A stretch of DNA of 64,000 nt from an uncultured Nonlabens sp. GTDB taxonomy: Bacteria > Bacteroidota > Bacteroidia > Flavobacteriales > Flavobacteriaceae. Both the position numbers and the translations under genes were made by a program. Shown here in pieces: positions 3,772 to 49,045 of this stretch. The notes below the pieces were generated by a model. That model was given only the letters and a program-made list of their open reading frames with translations. It made no database searches and was not told the DNA's origin. The stretch is from positions 27,103-91,102 of the forward strand of contig CANLKV010000005.1 in assembly GCA_947491755.1 (NCBI GenBank). The letters are read 5' to 3'. Each line of letters begins with the position of its first letter. Within the stretch, counting starts at the first letter, position 1.

Positions 3772-5214
3772 GTGAAACAATACATTTCTTTACTAGTATC
3801 TGGTCTTATTTGCATCGCCGTTCATGCCCAACGTGAACTTAGTTCGATATCCTTCCAGCCAGAGCGCAATGCGAGCGAGGCGCTTATTATCGTGGGGCAA
3901 GACTCTGCATTACATCTTATGATCACCAATAAGAAAGAGATCCAGCGATTTGATTATAATCCCACTTTAAGTATAGCTGCTCGCAAAAATTATGAAGCAC
4001 CGCGATCTAAATACAGTGAGATGGCAGGTTATGAAGTGAAAGAAGATGGTTTGATCAACCTTTATTATTCTAATTCCAGGAAGAATAAATTTTGCATGGT
4101 TACACTATCGCCAGCAGCTAGCGAGTCTGTAATTAATGAGCTAGACTTTAAGCTTAAAAAAGAAACTTATTTACAAGGCATCAGTCATCAAAATAAGTTT
4201 TACATACTAACCATTGACTTTAAATCTGTAGTAAGGCTTTATGAGTTTAATGCTGGCAATCACGAGGTAACGGAATTCCCGTTGGCACAAGTAAAATTTG
4301 AACCTGGGCGCGATGGTTTACGCAACTACTTGCATGATCATGTAAAAACTGGTGGTAGCACCAGTGTGGGTACTTCACTGGTAGACCTAGTTGATAGCGA
4401 GAGCCCTAATTCTATCGAAACAGCCAGCGCTCACAATAAACTGTATGTAAAAAATGGTGTCTTACGGTTAACAGTTGACAAGGATAAAGAAAGTACACAA
4501 GTAATTGAGATTGCACTAGCAGATAAAGAGTTAACGCTCAAAAGCTTTGATCAACCGTTAGAGTCTTTTGATTTATCTGATCGTATAGATTCTAACTCTT
4601 ATTTATATGATGAGAAGTTATTTCAAGTATTAGTTTCAAAAAACAAATTAGTATTTACTGTAACTGATTATCACAATGGTGAAGTGATCAAGCAGATTGA
4701 GCTTTTAAAAGATGAAAATATCGACATAGCAAACAGTGCTATTATTCAAGAGGGCGGTGATTTTGCTAGCTATCGCGAGCTAGAAAAAACCAGCCAGCTG
4801 CTTAGAAAAATGACATCTGCAGTACCAGGGATACCTGTACATAAAACAAATGGCATATATGAAATAACCCTGGGAGGTTCTAAAGAAATTGCGACTGGTG
4901 GTCCTATGATGATGGGCGGTTTTGGGCTGGGTGGTGCAGTAGGTGGACTTATACTTACAGCAACCCTTAACCCTACCCTGGGCGCGTATAATTCATATAC
5001 CCGTACTAAATCAACTTATTTTATAAGTTTATTTGACGATGATTTTAATCATATAGATGGCGCCGTAACACCTAATGTTTTTGATAAAATCAGGGATTAT
5101 ACAGATCGTAAGTCAACGAGTATTGAGACTATTTTTAGATATCAAAAAAGTTTTGTCTACGGGTATTATGATAATGTTGATCAGCAATATAAACTTGTAT
5201 TATTTGAGGATTGA
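3772..5214 (+). CDS. Secreted hypothetical protein
   Basis: 480 aa, Sec signal peptide ending VHA-Q; Gly-rich hydrophobic segment near the C-terminus; no family recognised. Confidence 0.7.
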   Translation: MKQYISLLVSGLICIAVHAQRELSSISFQPERNASEALIIVGQDSALHLMITNKKEIQRFDYNPTLSIAARKNYEAPRSKYSEMAGYEVKEDGLINLYYSNSRKNKFCMVTLSPAASESVINELDFKLKKETYLQGISHQNKFYILTIDFKSVVRLYEFNAGNHEVTEFPLAQVKFEPGRDGLRNYLHDHVKTGGSTSVGTSLVDLVDSESPNSIETASAHNKLYVKNGVLRLTVDKDKESTQVIEIALADKELTLKSFDQPLESFDLSDRIDSNSYLYDEKLFQVLVSKNKLVFTVTDYHNGEVIKQIELLKDENIDIANSAIIQEGGDFASYRELEKTSQLLRKMTSAVPGIPVHKTNGIYEITLGGSKEIATGGPMMMGGFGLGGAVGGLILTATLNPTLGAYNSYTRTKSTYFISLFDDDFNHIDGAVTPNVFDKIRDYTDRKSTSIETIFRYQKSFVYGYYDNVDQQYKLVLFED

Positions 5215-5261: not shown

Positions 5262-5306
5262 TGTAACAAAGGTTACCGTGCGAGATGACTGGAGTGACTA
5301 CCTTAG
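5262..5306 (+). promoter_or_regulatory. Crp/Fnr-type box TGTAAC-AAAG-GTTACC plus -7-like TACCTTAG
   Basis: Box 5262-5277, -7-like element 5299-5306. Confidence 0.65.
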
Positions 5307-5322
5307 TATTAAAAATCGGCTT

Positions 5323-5721
5323 ATGAAAAACTCCATTTTGTACAGCATTCTATTTTTAAAATGTCCCCAATGCAGGCAAGGAGAGTTTTTAAAAGAAAAC
5401 CCTTACCACCTGTCACGCATGAATGCGGTGAGATCTAGATGTCCACGCTGTGATCTCAAATACAGCATAGAACCTAGTTTTTATACAGGGTCGATGTACG
5501 TTTCTTATGCGGTAGGTATTGCATTTGCGGTTGCTACTTATGTAGTGTTGTTAATTTTGGGTCATGCAGATGATCCACTCACTATATTTATATCAATTGT
5601 GGTTGTGCTTGCTCTAACCTTTCCTTACATTGGTGCTGTTTCTAAAGCAATATGGGCGCATTTATTTATAAAATATGATGCTGTTATTGCAAAACAGGCA
5701 AAAAATGAATCCCGAACTTAA
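5323..5721 (+). CDS. DUF983 family membrane protein
   Basis: CPQC...CPRC, EPSFYTGSMYVSY, two TM helices; start reassigned to ATG 5323, downstream of the promoter. Confidence 0.8.
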   Translation: MKNSILYSILFLKCPQCRQGEFLKENPYHLSRMNAVRSRCPRCDLKYSIEPSFYTGSMYVSYAVGIAFAVATYVVLLILGHADDPLTIFISIVVVLALTFPYIGAVSKAIWAHLFIKYDAVIAKQAKNESRT

Positions 5722-6331
5722 AAAACATTACGGTTCTCTATTTGAACCAGAATTGCTCCAGCAGATTGATGATGTGTCCACCCTTTTAACAGTAGTAGAA
5801 GGCACCGCTCTCATTAAACCTGGACAGTATATACGCTCCATGCCTTTATTACTATCTGGCAGTATAAAAATAATGCGAGCAGATGAGCAGGGTAATGAAT
5901 TGTTGCTTTACTACCTAGAAAAAGGTGATACCTGCGCAATGACCATGAGCTGTTGTATGGGAACGACAAAGAGTGAAATCCACGCTATTACAGAAACTCC
6001 TACCGAGGTATTGATGATCCCCATAATCAAAATGGAAGAGTGGTCTAGTAAATACAAAACCTGGCGTAATTTTGTCTTTTCCAGTTACCATGATCGCATG
6101 ATGGAGCTGCTGGAAAGTCTCGACAATATTGCTTTCAACAACATGAATGAACGCTTAGGCAATTACCTTAAAGATAAAGTTGCTGTTTTAGGAAGTCAGC
6201 ATATTCATGCTACACACCGGGAGATCGCTGCAGATCTGAATACAAGCAGGGTAGTCATATCACGCCTGCTTAAAAACATGGAAAACAATAATCTTATAGA
6301 ACTGCATCGCAATTTTATCAAGCTGCTGTAA
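5705..6331 (+). CDS. Crp/Fnr family transcriptional regulator
   Basis: cNMP-binding-like N-domain (LLSGSIKI, LYYLEKGDTCAMT) and C-terminal HTH (THREIAADLNTSRVVISRLLK); likely start MNPEL. Confidence 0.9.
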   Translation: MNPELKKHYGSLFEPELLQQIDDVSTLLTVVEGTALIKPGQYIRSMPLLLSGSIKIMRADEQGNELLLYYLEKGDTCAMTMSCCMGTTKSEIHAITETPTEVLMIPIIKMEEWSSKYKTWRNFVFSSYHDRMMELLESLDNIAFNNMNERLGNYLKDKVAVLGSQHIHATHREIAADLNTSRVVISRLLKNMENNNLIELHRNFIKLL

Positions 6332-6371
6332 CAAGAGTTACAAAAGGAGCTTTTGAGTTAAAATACCTTTG
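6327..6371 (+). promoter_or_regulatory. Crp/Fnr-type box TGTAAC-AAGA-GTTACA plus -7 TACCTTTG
   Basis: Perfect palindromic arms 6327-6342 overlapping the regulator stop codon; consensus -7 at 6364-6371. Confidence 0.75.
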
Positions 6372-6388
6372 TAAATGAAAGTAATTAC

Positions 6389-7177
6389 ATGGATATTTTA
6401 GGATACATAGGTTCACTTGTTATAGGTATTGTTTTAGGTCTTATAGGTGGTGGTGGCTCTATTCTTACCGTGCCCCTACTTGTCTATGCACTGGCACTAC
6501 ATCCAGTTATTGCAACAGCTTATTCCCTATTTATCGTAGGTACGACTGCACTGGTAGGTGCGGTTAGAAATATGGTAGCGGGCAAAGTTGACTATAAAAC
6601 AGCGGTAATATTTGCTATTCCTGCATTGATAGCCGTGTATGCTACTCGCGCTTTTCTTTTACCTGCGCTTCCTGACGTTCTATTCACCATAAGCGATGTA
6701 ATCATTACTAAAGAGCTAGGAATCATGTTATTTTTTTCAATCATCATGTTGCTGGCTGCAGTATCGATGATAAAACCGCAAACTAAAGCCATTGAAGACT
6801 CTACCCCTATCACCTACAACTATCCGCTCATACTGGTTGAAGGAATTCTGGTAGGGATCATAACAGGTATTGTAGGAGCTGGCGGCGGGTTTTTAATTAT
6901 CCCTGCACTGGTGCTATTGGCTAAATTACCTATGAAAAAAGCCGTAGCTACCAGCTTACTTATTATCGCAATCAAATCGTTAATAGGTTTTATAGGAGAT
7001 GTACAACAAATGGATATTGACTGGGGATTTTTAAGCTTATTCACCAGCCTATCTGTATGTGGAATCTTTATAGGTATCTGGCTGAACAAATTTATTGATG
7101 GAGGCAAACTCAAAGCTGCCTTTGGGTGGATGGTATTATTTATGGGTATTTATATAATTTATAAAGAGTTATTTTGA
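6389..7177 (+). CDS. Sulfite exporter TauE/SafE family protein
   Basis: GLIGGGGSILTVP and GIVGAGGGFLIIP repeats; about 8 TM. Confidence 0.9.
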   Translation: MDILGYIGSLVIGIVLGLIGGGGSILTVPLLVYALALHPVIATAYSLFIVGTTALVGAVRNMVAGKVDYKTAVIFAIPALIAVYATRAFLLPALPDVLFTISDVIITKELGIMLFFSIIMLLAAVSMIKPQTKAIEDSTPITYNYPLILVEGILVGIITGIVGAGGGFLIIPALVLLAKLPMKKAVATSLLIIAIKSLIGFIGDVQQMDIDWGFLSLFTSLSVCGIFIGIWLNKFIDGGKLKAAFGWMVLFMGIYIIYKELF

Positions 7178-7584
7178 TGAGAACAAGATTAATTATTATC
7201 GCTACATGTCTTTTAATTTATATGACCAGCCTTGTAGCCTGCGCACAAAATGACACTATAAAAAATGACCCACAGGTGCTTACTCCTATCGCGTTCAAAG
7301 AACAAATAGAAAAGCATACCGTACAGCTAATTGATGTGAGAACTCCTGCAGAGTATGAGTCCGGCCATATAAATGGGGCACGCCTGATCAACTTTTTCGA
7401 TACAACGGCCTTTCATTCAAAAATTGATAGGCTAGATAAAACAAAACCTGTGTATTTATACTGCCGTACGGGTAAACGCAGCCATCAAGCGGCAATCATT
7501 TTACGCGATAAAGGTTTTAAACACGTTTATGATTTAGCAGGCGGCTATAACAATTGGTTAAAGTATATGAAATCAAAAGATTGA
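7174..7584 (+). CDS. Exported rhodanese-like domain protein
   Basis: Signal peptide; LIDVRTPAEYESGHINGA and active-site loop YCRTGKRS. Confidence 0.88.
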   Translation: MMRTRLIIIATCLLIYMTSLVACAQNDTIKNDPQVLTPIAFKEQIEKHTVQLIDVRTPAEYESGHINGARLINFFDTTAFHSKIDRLDKTKPVYLYCRTGKRSHQAAIILRDKGFKHVYDLAGGYNNWLKYMKSKD

Positions 7585-7629
7585 AACTGGATAAACATGT
7601 TTGCAACAATTTGTTAAAAGTCCTGGTTG

Positions 7630-7674
7630 TGTATCAATAGTTACTGTAAAGATCTGTGACTCCTTTTAATTTTA
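7630..7674 (+). promoter_or_regulatory. Crp/Fnr-type box TGTATC-AATA-GTTACT plus -7-like TAATTTTA
   Basis: One mismatch to GTAAC-N4-GTTAC; same 21-nt gap to the -7-like element at 7667-7674. Confidence 0.6.
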
Positions 7675-7688
7675 TTAAAAATAATATT

Positions 7689-9017
7689 ATGAACATCAAA
7701 CAATTTGAATACAAACCATTAGCCCATTATTCCTACGCCATTGTTAGTGATGGCAAGATGGCAGTAATTGATCCAGAGCGCGATGCGTCTATATATTACG
7801 CTTTCGCGAAAGCGAACAAAGCACAAATCGTCGCGGTTATTCAAACACATCCACACGCAGATTTTGTAAGTTCTCACCTAGAGATCCATCACGAAACGGG
7901 AGCGACTATTTACAATAGTGAAAAATTAGGAGCAGACTACCCACATGCACCATTTGATGAAGGTGCAAGCATCAAAATGGGAGCAGTCACATTGAGAGCA
8001 ATCAACACGCCTGGACATAGTCCTGATAGTATTACCATCGTTGCACAGGAAGGCGACTCGACCGCACTATTTACAGGAGACACCTTGTTCATAGGCGATG
8101 TAGGGCGTCCTGATTTGAGGGAAACTGTGGGTAACATGACTGCAAAACGTGAAGAACTTGCAGAAATGATGTACCATACTATAAATAATAAATATAATGA
8201 TCTACCCGATGATGCTGTGGTTTATCCTGCTCATGGCGCTGGGTCATTGTGCGGTAAAAATTTGAGCGACGCAGCCAGCAGCACCCTGGGTGATGAGAGA
8301 CGCAATAACTGGGCGTTTACCACTACCCGTAAGGAAGACTTTATGAAAGAGCTACTGGATGGACAACCTTTCATTCCATCCTATTTTGTTTATGACGTTG
8401 ACCTCAATAAGCAAGGAGCACCTTCAATTAACCATACAAGAAATAAAATACCTTTTGAAAAAAAGGGAAGTCCATCAGGTTTGATCATAGATACCAGACC
8501 AGAGTCTGTTTTTAAAAAAGGGCATATTTCTGGTAGTTATAATATTCAAGCCGCCTATCCCACCTCCAAATTTGAGACGTGGCTAGGTGCTGTTGTACGT
8601 CCAGAAGAATCTTACACTCTAGTTATAGATCAAGAAGAAAACAAAGAATCTATTATTGATCGGGTATCAAAAATAGGATACGAGATAGCACTAGAGAAAA
8701 TAATCACTATTGCCGATCATTCTTTACAACAAACACCTATACTGGATCTAGCTCATTTTAAAGCTCATACAGATCAATATACTGTTGTGGATATACGCAA
8801 TCAAAGTGAAATAGACCAAGGTAAGTTTTTTGATAAGGCACTAGCACATCCATTGAACAACTTAAGAGACACAGCAAAAAATATCCCCACAGATCGACCC
8901 ATCGTGGTGCATTGTGCGGGTGGCTATCGTAGTGCTGCTGGCAGCAGTATTGTACAACAAATACATCCAGATGCACAGGTGTACGATTTGAGCGAGGCAG
9001 TAAAAGAATTCCAGTAA
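7689..9017 (+). CDS. MBL-fold hydrolase/persulfide dioxygenase fused to rhodanese domains (CstB-like)
   Basis: THPHADF, TPGHSP, FTGDTLFIGDVGRPDL, YPAHGAGSLCG; C-terminal rhodanese VHCAGGYRS; likely start MNIKQF. Confidence 0.88.
   Translation: MNIKQFEYKPLAHYSYAIVSDGKMAVIDPERDASIYYAFAKANKAQIVAVIQTHPHADFVSSHLEIHHETGATIYNSEKLGADYPHAPFDEGASIKMGAVTLRAINTPGHSPDSITIVAQEGDSTALFTGDTLFIGDVGRPDLRETVGNMTAKREELAEMMYHTINNKYNDLPDDAVVYPAHGAGSLCGKNLSDAASSTLGDERRNNWAFTTTRKEDFMKELLDGQPFIPSYFVYDVDLNKQGAPSINHTRNKIPFEKKGSPSGLIIDTRPESVFKKGHISGSYNIQAAYPTSKFETWLGAVVRPEESYTLVIDQEENKESIIDRVSKIGYEIALEKIITIADHSLQQTPILDLAHFKAHTDQYTVVDIRNQSEIDQGKFFDKALAHPLNNLRDTAKNIPTDRPIVVHCAGGYRSAAGSSIVQQIHPDAQVYDLSEAVKEFQ
7799..7814. 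repeat. 16-bp palindrome copy, perfect, inside the MBL gene (AFAKA)
   Basis: CGCTTTCGCGAAAGCG. Confidence 0.95.
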
Positions 9018-9064: not shown

Positions 9065-9625
9065 ATGGAATACCTACTTAAAGAGCCATGGCCATGGTAC
9101 GCTGCAGGACCGCTTATTGCACTTACTTTAATGATATTATTATTATTGGGCAAGACCTTTGGCATGTCGTCTAATCTTAGGACAGCTTGTGCTGCAATGG
9201 GTGCCGGCAAGGCTTCTGACTTTTTTAAATTTGACTGGAAATCGCAACGCTGGAACTTACTTGTGGTACTGGGAGCGATAATCGGTGGCTGGATTGCTGC
9301 AACCTATATGAGTACTAGCACGGTCGCAATCAATCCACAAACTGCAGCACAGTTAGCTACAGATTATGGCATCACCAGCGCAGGGACCGCCTACCTACCT
9401 CCTGAAATTTTTGCATCTGTTAATTTAACAAGTCTTGAAAATTGGCTCATCTTAATAGGAGGTGGATTTCTGGTAGGTTTTGGCGCACGATACGCTGGTG
9501 GTTGCACCTCTGGTCATGCCATTACAGGATTGAGTAATCTACAACTGCCATCATTAGTTGCGGTCATCGGGTTTTTTATAGGTGGTTTAGTGATGATCAA
9601 CTGGATTTACCCACTAATTTTTTAA
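9065..9625 (+). CDS. YeeE/YedE family sulfur-compound transporter subunit
   Basis: PWPWYAAGPLI and GFGARYAGGCTSGHAI motifs. Confidence 0.9.
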   Translation: MEYLLKEPWPWYAAGPLIALTLMILLLLGKTFGMSSNLRTACAAMGAGKASDFFKFDWKSQRWNLLVVLGAIIGGWIAATYMSTSTVAINPQTAAQLATDYGITSAGTAYLPPEIFASVNLTSLENWLILIGGGFLVGFGARYAGGCTSGHAITGLSNLQLPSLVAVIGFFIGGLVMINWIYPLIF

Positions 9626-9627
9626 AC

Positions 9628-10041
9628 ATGAAAACATTATCTTATTTGATCACAGGAATATTTTTTGGCATTGTTATGTTTAAGTCAGAGGCTGCATCCT
9701 GGTTTCGTATTTACGAGATGTTTACTTTCGGTAGTTTTCATATGTACGGTATTATAGGTTCTGCTTTAATACTAGGAATTATTGGTATTCAGATTTTAAA
9801 AAAAACAAATAGTAAAGCCCTAGGTGGTCAGGAATTGCAACTAGCGGCAAAAGATCGTAGTTACCCTAGATACTTGCTAGGCGGAGTGATTTTTGGACTG
9901 GGCTGGGCACTTGCAGGCGCTTGTCCAGGCCCCATGTACGTGTTGCTAGGCGCCGGCTACGGCTCGATAGCTCTGGTTATTATAGGTGCGCTCATAGGCA
10001 CTTTTACTTATGGCGTTTTGAGAAATAAATTACCTCATTAA
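9628..10041 (+). CDS. YeeE/YedE family partner subunit (DUF6691-like)
   Basis: GGVIFGLGWALAGACPGP motif. Confidence 0.85.
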   Translation: MKTLSYLITGIFFGIVMFKSEAASWFRIYEMFTFGSFHMYGIIGSALILGIIGIQILKKTNSKALGGQELQLAAKDRSYPRYLLGGVIFGLGWALAGACPGPMYVLLGAGYGSIALVIIGALIGTFTYGVLRNKLPH

Positions 10042-10045
10042 TCCA

Positions 10046-11503
10046 TCACGCCATTCTATTGATCATGGAGTGGGCAGATAAAATACGTAAGGCCTCCCAT
10101 TGTACTTTAGGATTATTACGATAGGAATAAATGACGTCTGCAGCATGTTTTCTCGTCACTGCAATATCCACAATAGGTCTGGGGTAATCGATGCCATAAT
10201 TAAAATCATGGTATTCGTTTAATTCTTGTTCCAGCAGCCACGGTTCCCTAGCAAACCGGGCAGACAATGGCCTCAACTCTGGAATGTATTGCTTTATAAA
10301 CAAGGCATCGGGATCATGATCCTGTGCCCCTTTTACTGGATTGTAAATGCGCAAGGTGTTTGTGCCAGTTAGTCCTGCTTGCATCTGGAATTGCCCGTAA
10401 TGAATACCAGGTTCCCAATCTAGAAAGCAGGCTGCCAGATAGGCACTGCCTGTGGTAAAATGTTGGAACAGATGGTGGCATAAAAATGAGACTACTAGCG
10501 CACGCATCCTGAAGTTGATATAACCCGTTTCTCGCACGGCGCGCATCGCAGCATCAACTAGCGGGTATCCCGTTTTTCCCTCTTTCCACGCTTTTACATA
10601 ATCGGCATTGTAGGGGTATTTGAGCGATTGATATCCACGATTGATTGCTTCAAACTCGATGCGTGGTTCCTGTTCAAATTTTTGAATAAAATGGCTTTGC
10701 CATCGCAACCTGCTGCTAAAGGCACTGAGTGATTTTTTATAAGGAGTTTTAACTCTCTCATTTTCAGTACGCTGAAACACTTGCCGAATGGATACATTTC
10801 CCCAGGCGATGTATGGGGACAAACGACTACAGCTCATACGCGACAGTAAGGGTTTTGAAATATGGGCTGCATAAAACCTGGAGCGTTGTAAAAAAAATGA
10901 GTCCAACCATTGATGGGCCTGGCGTTCCCCACCTTGTTGAAATCTTTGTGAGCTAACTGTTAAATCAAGCGGTGTAAAGAGGTTTAAAAAGGAGTCCGCT
11001 TTCGCGAAAGCGAAATTACCCAAAGCTACATTACACAAGGGCTTGCACATATACTCATACCAATCTTGAGACCAGGTACTACGATTTTTTGCCCCACGAA
11101 CGACTCCATTGTTTTGAAATTCCTGCCAGATGACCTTATGGGTTTTACACCATTTTTTTACCTGCTTATCACGCGTGTAGGTGTGATCCAGTCCAGACTC
11201 TTCTGTGCTATGGATGCGCCCTATACCGTGGTGTCTATGTAGTTTTTCAAAAAAGGGAATCGCATCTTCTGTGACGGCCATGACCTGTGCGTTGTATCGC
11301 GCTAGGCTTGCATTCATATCTTCTAGCGACTGCTTTACAAAATTTAAATGCCGCTGTGAATAATGAGCATTACGCCATATGCTAGGTTCGTGCAAATAAA
11401 CCAATAAGACAGGATTATCTAAGGTTTGAAAGGCTTGTAATCCTTCTAGATCTGACAGTCGCAAATCTCTTTTGAACCAGTAAATATGAAGACCTGCCCC
11501 CAT
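10046..11503 (-). CDS. Cryptochrome/photolyase family protein
   Basis: YWFKRDLRLSD, SRLSPYIAWG, TGYPLVDAAMR, LRIYNPVK; -7 element TAAATTTG at 11524-11531. Confidence 0.88.
   Translation of the reverse strand: MGAGLHIYWFKRDLRLSDLEGLQAFQTLDNPVLLVYLHEPSIWRNAHYSQRHLNFVKQSLEDMNASLARYNAQVMAVTEDAIPFFEKLHRHHGIGRIHSTEESGLDHTYTRDKQVKKWCKTHKVIWQEFQNNGVVRGAKNRSTWSQDWYEYMCKPLCNVALGNFAFAKADSFLNLFTPLDLTVSSQRFQQGGERQAHQWLDSFFLQRSRFYAAHISKPLLSRMSCSRLSPYIAWGNVSIRQVFQRTENERVKTPYKKSLSAFSSRLRWQSHFIQKFEQEPRIEFEAINRGYQSLKYPYNADYVKAWKEGKTGYPLVDAAMRAVRETGYINFRMRALVVSFLCHHLFQHFTTGSAYLAACFLDWEPGIHYGQFQMQAGLTGTNTLRIYNPVKGAQDHDPDALFIKQYIPELRPLSARFAREPWLLEQELNEYHDFNYGIDYPRPIVDIAVTRKHAADVIYSYRNNPKVQWEALRILSAHSMINRMA
10997..11012. 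repeat. 16-bp palindrome copy, perfect, inside the photolyase-family gene (AFAKA)
   Basis: CGCTTTCGCGAAAGCG. Confidence 0.95.
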
Positions 11504-12243: not shown

Positions 12244-12879
12244 TTATTTTTCAGATTTTAGTAATTGATGTGCCGCATTAAACTGACTCTCGAGCGTTGA
12301 ATAATCTGTAAAGCCTCGAGTTACTACGGCGGCCTTATTATCGTCTACCAGCAATACAGTAGGAAACCCATTGACCTGCAGCTGGGCCGTTAATTTAAAA
12401 TCAGCCTCGGCTTTTTGACGGTATCGAGAGTCTTCCATCATTTGGGCAAATTGTTTGGTATCCAGCCCGTGAGCTGTTGCTAGATCAATATAGGTTTGTG
12501 ATTCAATGGGCTGGTGACCGTAGTAATAAATCGCCTTTTGTATATCTGCCGCAAATGCTAATTGACTGGCTGGACGCAACTCTTTAAAAGCAACCATTGC
12601 TATGGCAGCTGGTATGGAGGTAAAGATGGCACTTCCCTCTTCCAGTATATCGGTAAGAAATGATTCACCAAATTTTACTCCAGCGCGCTGTTCTACATCT
12701 TTATAAGCGCTAGAAATGTAGGCGGCAACTTCTCCAATAGGTCCTATACGATCACCAGTAATCATACCGCCAGACACGACCTCGCATTCTAATTTCTTAT
12801 CATTTACAAGCTGCTGGATCACGGGAGAAAAACCGTAACACCAGCCACATAAAGCATCATAAACATATATTATTTTCAT
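12244..12879 (-). CDS. DsbA/FrnE-family thioredoxin-fold protein, no signal peptide
   Basis: YVYDALCGWCYGF (CxxC) and cis-Pro loop GFPT. Confidence 0.88.
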   Translation of the reverse strand: MKIIYVYDALCGWCYGFSPVIQQLVNDKKLECEVVSGGMITGDRIGPIGEVAAYISSAYKDVEQRAGVKFGESFLTDILEEGSAIFTSIPAAIAMVAFKELRPASQLAFAADIQKAIYYYGHQPIESQTYIDLATAHGLDTKQFAQMMEDSRYRQKAEADFKLTAQLQVNGFPTVLLVDDNKAAVVTRGFTDYSTLESQFNAAHQLLKSEK

Positions 12880-45385: not shown

Positions 45386-47899
<2,514 letters not shown>

Positions 47900-47924
<25 letters not shown>

Positions 47925-49045
47925 CTATTGTAGGCATGGGTTGCGCTGGCAGTCATGTATTGCTGCAGTTACTGGATAACCCGTCCACGCGGGATATAAA
48001 GATCTTGGTGCTGGACGATTTTCAAGCAGATAGTCAGGAAAAAACTTGGAGCTACTGGGAGAAAGGAAATGGCAAGTGGGATCATTTAACATCACATATC
48101 TGGCCGCATGGCGCGTTTTATACCAATCGAGTCTCCATAGAATTTGATTTGCACCCTTATCAATATAAAACGATAGAAAGTCGTGATTTTATCGCTTTCG
48201 CGAAAGCGAAATTACAACAACATCCCAATTGCACTTATGTCAATGCCCGTGTTGAAGCGCATGTGGCAGGCACACCCGTTGTTCTCAAAACTAAAGAAAT
48301 GGAATACCAGGCAGATCTAGTTCTAGACAGCCGGGTACCCACTGCGTTTTATCAGGACGATCAGGCCACCACCCTGAAGCAACACTTTTTAGGTTGGAAA
48401 ATTAAAACAGCTGTAGCTTCATTTGACCCATCATCATTTGTAATGATGGATTATCGGATACAGGATCAAGGTACAACTAGCTTTATCTATATCTTACCCA
48501 CTAGTGAACGGGAAGCGCTGGTAGAATTTACTTACTTCTCGCCAGAAATTGTGAGTAACAAACGTTATGAGGATTTTATAAGGGAGTATCTATCGACACA
48601 TACAAATATCAAGGATTTTGAGATTATAGGACAAGAGCAAGGCATTGTACCCATGTCCACATACAGATTTGACCAGCATCATGAGGGCAATCTTTATAAA
48701 ATTGGTACAGCAGGTGGATGGGTAAAAGCCAGTACTGGATACAGTTTTAAAATGAGTGAAAAACGTGCAAAAATACTGGTAGCAAACTATGTGGCAAATC
48801 GCGATCTTGATAGTGGTATGCAAAAGAAGAGATTCCAGCTATATGACGAAATCATGTTGGATGTGCTGTCAGATCATAATGATCGCGGGCATTTGCTTTT
48901 TGAAAACTTGTACAAAAACAATCCTATCACACGTATTTTATCATTTTTAGATGAGGAAACAAGTTTTTCTCAGGAACTTAAAATCATGTTCCCATTAACA
49001 TCAATGCCCTTTATTAAAGGTTTTTTCCGCAGGATCTTGCAATAA
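47900..49045 (+). CDS. crtY: Lycopene beta-cyclase
   Basis: Likely start MDHHKYDIAIVGMGCAG; KTWSYWE, FIYILP, EQGIVPM, IGTAGG..KASTGY. Confidence 0.88.
48193..48208. repeat. 16-bp palindrome copy, perfect, inside crtY (AFAKA)
   Basis: CGCTTTCGCGAAAGCG. Confidence 0.95.

Follow-up and report, generated by a model that had tools for sequence, protein, structure and literature searches.

The window analysed here, a 64,000-nucleotide (nt) stretch of DNA from an uncultured Nonlabens sp. (a marine flavobacterium; contig CANLKV010000005.1 of assembly GCA_947491755.1), holds a short locus in which the gene of a Crp/Fnr-family regulator stands among genes for predicted sulfur transporters, rhodaneses and a putative persulfide dioxygenase (Table 1). 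Three palindromic boxes are found in this locus, each of them ahead of an element of the Bacteroidota -7 promoter type, and the subject of the present analysis is the regulon that the boxes, the regulator and the surrounding genes may form together.

Read directly in the window, the boxes are the 16-mers TGTAACAAAGGTTACC (5262-5277), TGTAACAAGAGTTACA (6327-6342) and TGTATCAATAGTTACT (7630-7645). At all three sites the -7-like element starts 37 nt from the start of the 16-mer (i.e. 36 nt from the G of GTAAC), which leaves exactly 22 nt between the 14-mer core and the sequence TAnnTT(T/A)(G/A). These readings bear out every box and -7 coordinate of the original prediction, together with its 37-nt offset. 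It had also described the boxes as three copies of GTAAC-N4-GTTAC, which is exact for boxes 1 and 2 but not for box 3, where a single mismatch turns the first half-site into GTATC (GTATC-N4-GTTAC). Its statement that the middle box carries the stop codon of the regulator is correct, since the TAA at 6329-6331, within box 2, ends the Crp/Fnr open reading frame (ORF), and the genes that it placed behind the boxes are the ones that Pfam recognises, namely DUF983, Crp/Fnr, TauE, rhodanese, MBL plus rhodanese, and two YeeE halves.

Taken alone the box is weak evidence, as the 14-mer with at most one mismatch is matched four times in the window versus 1.6 times expected. The composite of box, 22 nt and TAnnTT (at most two mismatches) is matched six times versus 0.72 expected, a number reached by none of 100 shuffled sequences, and the three forward composites carry 0, 0 and 1 mismatches. 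Because the box is palindromic, two of the six matches are reverse-strand readings of boxes 1 and 2, so that four distinct places are left. The fourth place, at 12835, was rejected as a chance match, both of its mismatches falling in the second half-site (GCCAC for GTTAC), and so was the fourth match to the 14-mer alone, at 48555, which lies inside the ORF 47783-49045 and has no -7 element. A sigma-70 promoter and terminator scan of the window gave chance levels only, the sigma-70 model not being applicable to Bacteroidota.

Over residues 3-424 of 442, the MBL-rhodanese protein encoded behind box 3 matches the Protein Data Bank (PDB) entries 3tp9 (E 4e-56) and 3r2u (E 3e-47), the latter of which we take to be the CstB-type protein of S. 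aureus, with weaker matches to ETHE1 and BpPRF; by its MBL-rhodanese fusion and the near-full-length sequence similarity it is of the CstB type. The DUF983 ORF, which overlaps the start of crp by 17 nt, is a conserved first gene of the autoregulated unit. As it takes this place in 23 loci of relatives, its product may be a functional partner of the regulator.

Table 1. Predicted regulatory elements and genes of the locus, in window coordinates. The predicted starts derive from the consensus position of the -7 element.
Feature	Position	Strand	Remarks
Box 1, GTAACAAAGGTTAC	5263..5276	+	Predicted activator site of the DUF983-crp promoter (autoregulation)
-7 element of P(DUF983-crp), TACCTTAG	5299..5306	+	Predicted start ~5311, leader ~12 nt; offset-36 rule
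DUF983 small membrane protein, CxxC...CxxC	5323..5721	+	Pfam PF06170, E 2e-4, just under cutoff
Crp/Fnr-family regulator, 208 amino acids, Cys C77/C83/C84, helix TSRVVISR	5705..6331	+	Pfam cNMP_binding and HTH_Crp_2
Box 2, GTAACAAGAGTTAC, holds the crp stop codon TAA	6328..6341	+	Predicted activator site of the tauE promoter
-7 element of P(tauE), TACCTTTG	6364..6371	+	Predicted start ~6376, leader ~13 nt
TauE/SafE-family anion (sulfite-type) exporter, predicted	6389..7177	+	Pfam PF01925, E 9e-42
Single-domain rhodanese, signal/lipoprotein-like N-terminus	7177..7584	+	Pfam PF00581, E 2e-23
Box 3, GTATCAATAGTTAC, conserved variant half-site	7631..7644	+	Predicted activator site of the cstB-like promoter
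-7 element of P(cstB-like), TAATTTTA	7667..7674	+	Predicted start ~7679, leader ~10 nt
MBL-fold plus rhodanese, CstB type (putative persulfide dioxygenase-sulfurtransferase)	7689..9017	+	Pfam Lactamase_B and Rhodanese
YeeE/YedE-type sulfur transporter, first half	9065..9625	+	Pfam Sulf_transp; weak NCBIfam TsuA match
YeeE/YedE-type sulfur transporter, second half (DUF6691)	9628..10041	+	Pfam DUF6691 and Sulf_transp

Conservation of the boxes and of the genes behind them

The boxes recur with the regulator. In 75 loci that carry an ortholog (49-75% identity; 870 kb, mostly Flavobacteriaceae with some Saprospiraceae and Crocinitomicaceae), 150 exact boxes were counted versus 3 in the reversed sequence that served as control, and 179 composites of box and -7 element versus 1, the composites being seen in 65 of the 75 loci. 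The spacing between the two parts is rigid. At offset 36 from the G of GTAAC, 182 of the 208 boxes with at most one mismatch (window included) show a match of at least 5/6 to TAnnTTTG, which is exact in 89 of these 182, while the next best offset accounts for 23 sites, with a background of 0-20 and no enrichment at any offset besides 36.

This spacing can be converted into a promoter position, as TAnnTTTG, the sigma-A consensus, lies at -12 to -5 in the map of transcription starts for Flavobacterium psychrophilum (PMC9723704). If the T of TA is put at -12, the 14-mer occupies -48 to -35, with its centre at -41.5. Canonical NtcA-activated promoters likewise carry GTA-N8-TAC centred at about -41.5, with class II sites 22 nt from the -10 box (PMC3898017). 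By the consensus position of the -7 element, the present promoters are thus of the class II kind, with the site near -41.5 and at a fixed distance from a -10-like element. In addition, the logo of the sites has no TTG at the expected -33 position, so that the promoters look activator-dependent. A rigid placement at -41.5 in combination with an absent -33 element would be the signature of class II activation, and the original claim that the boxes are class II-type sites in place of the -33 element agrees with all three features (spacing, centre and missing TTG). The logo is also asymmetric, with a T before the promoter-distal half-site in 81% of the sites, while no mirrored A follows the proximal half-site. 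Separately, the aligned sites are rich in A/T 10-14 nt upstream of the box, where an UP-element-like contact is possible.

The arrangement of the sites relative to the genes is conserved as well. The pattern predicted for the window, of one box at the regulator's own promoter and one at its stop codon, returns among the relatives, with the TAA of the box serving as the stop codon of the regulator in 47 of the 75 loci; as a consequence, neither the last codon (NTG) nor the operator can vary independently of the other. It might be speculated that an activator bound at the 3' end of its own gene also blocks read-through from the upstream promoter. The variant half-site of box 3 is found at the promoter of the cstB-type gene of 440-445 amino acids in 13 of 15 loci (e.g. 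L001:3630, L019:8424 and L042:7516). It is therefore a conserved variant rather than a decayed box, which suggests a deliberately weaker or differently tuned site.

Taking the first gene downstream of each oriented site in the ortholog loci as its target, tauE is the commonest (52 sites), followed by DUF983(-crp) (23), MBL-rhodanese proteins of 460-480 amino acids (20), small rhodaneses (17), MBL-rhodanese proteins of 440-445 amino acids (15), a 1-Cys peroxiredoxin (12), yeeE (11), a flavoprotein of the type II SQR kind (7 sites; E 2e-101 to human SQOR structures) and crp directly (5). Further members of these operons are HMA-domain proteins, thioredoxin, cytochrome c/Tll0287-like proteins, cupin, YgaP-like membrane proteins, a fatty-acid-hydroxylase-like protein, SulP and TolC/RND efflux. 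The target families that are additional in the relatives are not encoded elsewhere in the 64-kb window. Judged by sequence, the genes would constitute a set for the detoxification of sulfide to sulfite/thiosulfate, and this set resembles the genes that are controlled by CstR, SqrR/BigR and FisR in other bacteria.

When metagenome contigs were scanned for the motif only (exact TGTAAC-N4-GTTAC-N22-TAnnTTTG, the regulator being ignored), at least 129 sites were obtained in at least 120 stretches, and among the sites listed the first downstream gene belonged to the sulfur regulon families for 71 of 129 (~55%).

The regulator and its known counterparts

The regulator is a member of the Crp/Fnr superfamily, with PF00027 and PF13545 both above their Pfam cutoffs and a CRP fold in its AlphaFold2 model (predicted local distance difference test score, pLDDT, 87.6), for which CAP, FNR, DNR and NtcA are the top Foldseek matches. 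The closest solved sequences are PDB 3dv8 (E 4.5e-14), then NtcA and CRP, and in public databases its close relatives are all named just 'Crp/Fnr family transcriptional regulator'. Its only cysteines are C77, C83 and C84, in a stretch that aligns with the effector-binding (ligand-pocket) segment of NtcA and CRP. The Cys cluster to which the original prediction had drawn attention proves to be near-invariant, C77 being kept in 74 of 74 orthologs and C83 and C84 each in 72 of 74, and the three residues are likewise invariant or near-invariant in an alignment of 43 sequences. The recognition helix S181-R-V-V-x-S-R187 is invariant in 43 orthologs and carries Val where CRP has Glu-181, a feature shared with NtcA (RVTVTR).

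A wider family surrounds this branch. A profile search over 1.84 billion representatives returned 415 clusters at E <=1e-30, and among the best 150 of these 415 clusters C77 is present in 146 and the full Cys triad in 56, while the CRP Glu-181 position is taken by Val in 49 and by Glu in 90. For six Glu-type members the contigs were examined. In three of the six (L196, L197 and L201), half-sites of the GTGAT type (TGTGAT-N4-GTCACA and TGTAAC-N4-ATCACA) adjoin rhodanese, SQR-like and Tll0287-like genes, at L196:4616, L196:5757, L197:1442, L201:2105 and L201:3071. Both L201 sites have the 22-nt gap followed by TAnnTTTG in exact form, at L196 and L197 the -7 matches are only partial, and the other three Glu-type members stand in unrelated gene contexts. 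With three loci only, this looks like the covariation of helix residue and half-site that is expected if these proteins read the boxes.

Among the known systems, HcpR2 resembles the locus on its DNA side. For the HcpR2 branch, whose members in Bacteroides, Clostridium, Thermotogales and Treponema are predicted to regulate hcp, Rodionov et al. (2005) published the motif GTAACnnnnGTTAC and a change of Glu-181 to Pro (PMC1274295). The core of this motif is identical to the window boxes, and the geometry of box, 22 nt and TAnnTTTG is common to both in Bacteroidota metagenome contigs. A second group of sites in the motif-only scan has at least 16 hcp and at least 11 4Fe-4S ferredoxin-like ORFs behind it, mostly as the first gene (the ferredoxin-like ORFs being called from Pfam, Hcp from size and sequence recognition). 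The Crp-like proteins beside these hcp-type sites have the helix TRPSLGR and share ~22% identity with the window regulator, i.e. they represent the HcpR2 branch. Metagenome loci with hcp or ferredoxin-like promoters of the box design include L093, L097, L105, L164, L167, L077 and others. The differences lie in the protein and its targets, namely Pro at the CRP Glu-181 position (TRPSLGR) versus Val in the window regulator (TSRVVISR), and a regulon of hcp and ferredoxin-like genes for nitrosative stress versus the sulfur genes found here. As the helix has Val rather than Pro, and as no hcp gene is present in the window or the 75 regulator loci, identity with HcpR2 was rejected. The DNA word was therefore known from HcpR2, while the regulator and the regulon belong to a different branch.

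The likeness to NtcA extends to the protein. GTAAC-N4-GTTAC falls within the pattern GTA-N8-TAC, both systems have 22 nt between the box and the -10-like element, the recognition helix is of the R-V-x-V-x-R-like type, and NtcA is among the best PDB and NCBIfam matches. The window regulator differs in having three Cys in its pocket in place of the residues that bind 2-oxoglutarate, as well as in phylum, in the promoter type of its sigma factor and in regulon; at 42 bits versus an equivalog cutoff of 245 (TIGR03697), it is not NtcA. With FNR and CRP of E. coli in their class II mode it would share the features of a dimeric Crp-fold activator and a 5-4-5 palindrome at -41.5 that replaces the upstream promoter element, whereas the partner here would be the Bacteroidota sigma-A with its -7/-33 promoter architecture. 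Identity with CRP was rejected (48 bits versus the NCBIfam NF008732 equivalog cutoff of 266), and so was identity with FNR, because there is no Cys before residue 77 and hence no N-terminal [4Fe-4S] Cys cluster of the FNR type. The best match among solved structures, PDB 3dv8 (a Crp/Fnr protein of Eubacterium rectale), has Cys aligned with C77 and C83 but keeps Glu in its recognition helix; it is an uncharacterised protein.

On the side of the targets, the counterparts are the dedicated sulfane-sulfur sensors, which according to a 2026 review belong to the CsoR, ArsR and Fis classes only (CstR, SqrR/BigR and FisR; PMC13467558). Common to these systems and the present one are a regulon of SQR, CstB/Blh-type dioxygenase-rhodanese, TauE-type exporter, rhodaneses and YeeE, and conserved cysteines, which are the presumed sensor here. 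In contrast, the fold of the window regulator (Crp) is unrelated and falls outside the CsoR, ArsR and Fis/sigma-54 families, and it is predicted to act as a sigma-A activator rather than as a repressor or a sigma-54 enhancer-binding protein.

Mode of regulation, signal and alternatives

Following these comparisons, it seems quite probable that the adjacent Crp/Fnr protein is a class II activator of a sulfide/persulfide detoxification regulon, and that sulfane sulfur is its likely signal, although the identity of the binder, the activation and the signal are each deduced from sequence. The 208-amino-acid protein would bind the (T)GTAAC-N4-GTTAC boxes as a dimer, at about -41.5 and 22 nt upstream of the sigma-A element TAnnTTTG, in promoters without a -33 element, and would thereby activate the three promoters of the window, i.e. 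those of DUF983-crp (its own operon), tauE-rhodanese and cstB-like-yeeE-yeeE. Jointly these targets would form a regulon for the detoxification and export of sulfide/persulfide (reactive sulfur species), which in relatives would extend to type II SQR, 1-Cys peroxiredoxin, thioredoxin and small rhodaneses. The likeliest signal would be persulfide or polysulfide formed from sulfide, sensed by C77, C83 and C84 lining the effector pocket, the modification of which would yield a DNA-binding, activating dimer.

That the adjacent protein is the class II activator is well supported by the rigid placement at -41.5 without a -33 element, by the NtcA-like helix and box, and by the way in which the boxes track the regulator gene and the helix residue appears to co-vary with the half-site. 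For the signal the argument is of a different kind. Given the sulfur gene set, and given that no sensor of the Crp/Fnr class appears in the review or in our searches, the most economical hypothesis is that the pocket cysteines sense sulfane sulfur. In its main lines the original prediction, of a local Crp/Fnr protein that activates three promoters including its own and may respond to a sulfur or redox species through its Cys cluster, agrees with these results.

RNA contigs of two relatives, starting 0 and 8 nt from the predicted start, lend weak support to the DUF983-crp promoter alone; a search for sequencing runs of the Nonlabens genome itself gave none. In Leeuwenhoekiella blandensis MED217 (L015; RNA runs of only ~4-5 Mb of assembled contigs), one RNA-seq contig starts at 5605 of that locus, which is the exact predicted +1 of this promoter. 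The sole RNA contig at L014, a locus from a near-identical relative of N. ulvanivorans, covers only DUF983-crp (5618-6720 of L014) and starts 8 nt downstream of the predicted +1. Three large RNA runs from 2026 contained zero reads at the N. ulvanivorans locus.

A number of observations weigh against the proposed activator and signal. Other L. blandensis RNA contigs, of low depth, begin within the gene or extend across the promoter. Some ten orthologs from Crocinitomicaceae/Fluviicola (~50% identity) have no boxes within 6 kb, and in these loci (among them L057, L063-L066, L068, L069 and L074) the helix and the cysteines are unchanged, while the regulon families are likewise absent within 6 kb except for TolC/RND efflux in L057. 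The linkage of regulator and targets is therefore not universal for the wider family. Furthermore, model confidence is lowest in the Cys loop (residues 71-90, pLDDT 60-66), the three cysteines could instead bind a metal, an Fe-S cluster or heme, and the boxes could be shared with, or contested by, a paralog of the HcpR2 type encoded at another place in the genome.

The strongest of the alternatives concerns the signal and leaves regulator and sites unchanged. An Fe-S cluster, heme or metal on the Cys triad could respond to O2, NO, thiol/redox stress or a thiophilic metal, or thiosulfate or sulfite could occupy the pocket. There is precedent for this, as relatives within Crp/Fnr sense via Fe-S (FNR) or heme (HcpR, PMC12750200), and besides the poorly modelled Cys loop, the presence of 1-Cys peroxiredoxin, thioredoxin, an HMA-domain protein, cytochrome c/Tll0287-like proteins and RND efflux in the regulon of the relatives would fit such a signal. 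However, conservation is highest for the targets that make up the specific sulfide-oxidation set (SQR, CstB-type dioxygenase, TauE, YeeE and rhodaneses), the N-terminal Cys cluster of the FNR type is absent, and there are just three conserved Cys per protomer, which makes a signal other than sulfane sulfur rather unlikely.

It is considerably less likely still that the boxes are operators of a repressor, in which case the Crp/Fnr protein would occlude the upstream part of the promoter until the signal releases it, in the manner of CstR and SqrR. Most known sulfane-sulfur sensors are indeed repressors released by sulfane sulfur, with FisR as the activator exception (PMC13467558), a box covering -48 to -35 could block RNA polymerase, and NtcA, too, represses at some promoters. 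Yet the sites of repressors tend to differ in position from promoter to promoter and to reach into the -7 element or the start, whereas a spacing at -41.5 that is rigid to one base over ~180 promoters without a -33 element is a class II signature. That another Crp/Fnr paralog (e.g. of the HcpR2 type, encoded elsewhere) reads the boxes, with the adjacent regulator gene as a mere target, is highly improbable, for although HcpR2-type regulators use the identical GTAAC-N4-GTTAC core and geometry at hcp promoters, the window and the 75 loci lack an hcp gene, a second Crp-like gene is likewise missing from the window (the only place where one was looked for), the boxes follow the regulator gene as far as its stop codon, the residue in the helix appears to vary together with the half-site, and the sulfur-type sites of the motif-only scan had this regulator family nearby, not HcpR2.

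Wider implications and flanking genes

If sulfane sulfur is the signal of the class II activator proposed here, a broader proposal can be made, which we regard as possible but tentative: the Crp/Fnr branch with a Cys pocket may represent a fourth structural class of dedicated sulfide/persulfide sensor, and the main one in Flavobacteriia, in which modification of C77 and C83/C84 produces the class II activator. Per- or polysulfidation of C77 with C83/C84, or their bridging (Cys-Sn-Cys), would fill the pocket that is taken by cAMP in CRP and by 2-oxoglutarate in NtcA, and with the pocket occupied the dimer would become a class II activator that works on the sigma-A holoenzyme of Bacteroidota.

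No description of this sulfur regulon, or of a sensor for sulfide or persulfide of the Crp/Fnr type, was found in the literature searched, which leaves most subscription journals outside, so that absence is unproven. What appears to be new is the branch of the regulator and its sulfur regulon, while the operator motif (of the HcpR2/NtcA type) and the class II design were known. The heterotrophic Flavobacteriia of the sea, which consume a major share of organic matter, encounter sulfide in particles, sediments and algal mats, and for these Flavobacteriia the literature searched held no description of how sulfide oxidation (SQR, persulfide dioxygenase) is switched on. Should the proposal be true, it would add a new protein scaffold to the few bacterial sensors of sulfane sulfur, and it would provide a clean and portable example of class II activation with the unusual sigma-A (-7/-33) promoter of Bacteroidota. 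It would also yield a simple sequence rule (box, 22 nt, TAnnTTTG) by which regulons for sulfur stress could be annotated across thousands of genomes and metagenomes of Bacteroidota. With two branches of Crp/Fnr proteins using one operator word and one geometry, how the nitrosative and sulfur responses stay separate becomes a testable question.

The surroundings of the locus in the window add two observations. Directly upstream of box 1 lies an ORF of 480 amino acids (3772-5214) that has no Pfam family. At the other side, no terminator-like hairpin could be seen between the yeeE pair and the gene that converges on its end, which belongs to the photolyase/cryptochrome family (DNA_photolyase and FAD_binding_7) and occupies 10046-11503 on the minus strand.

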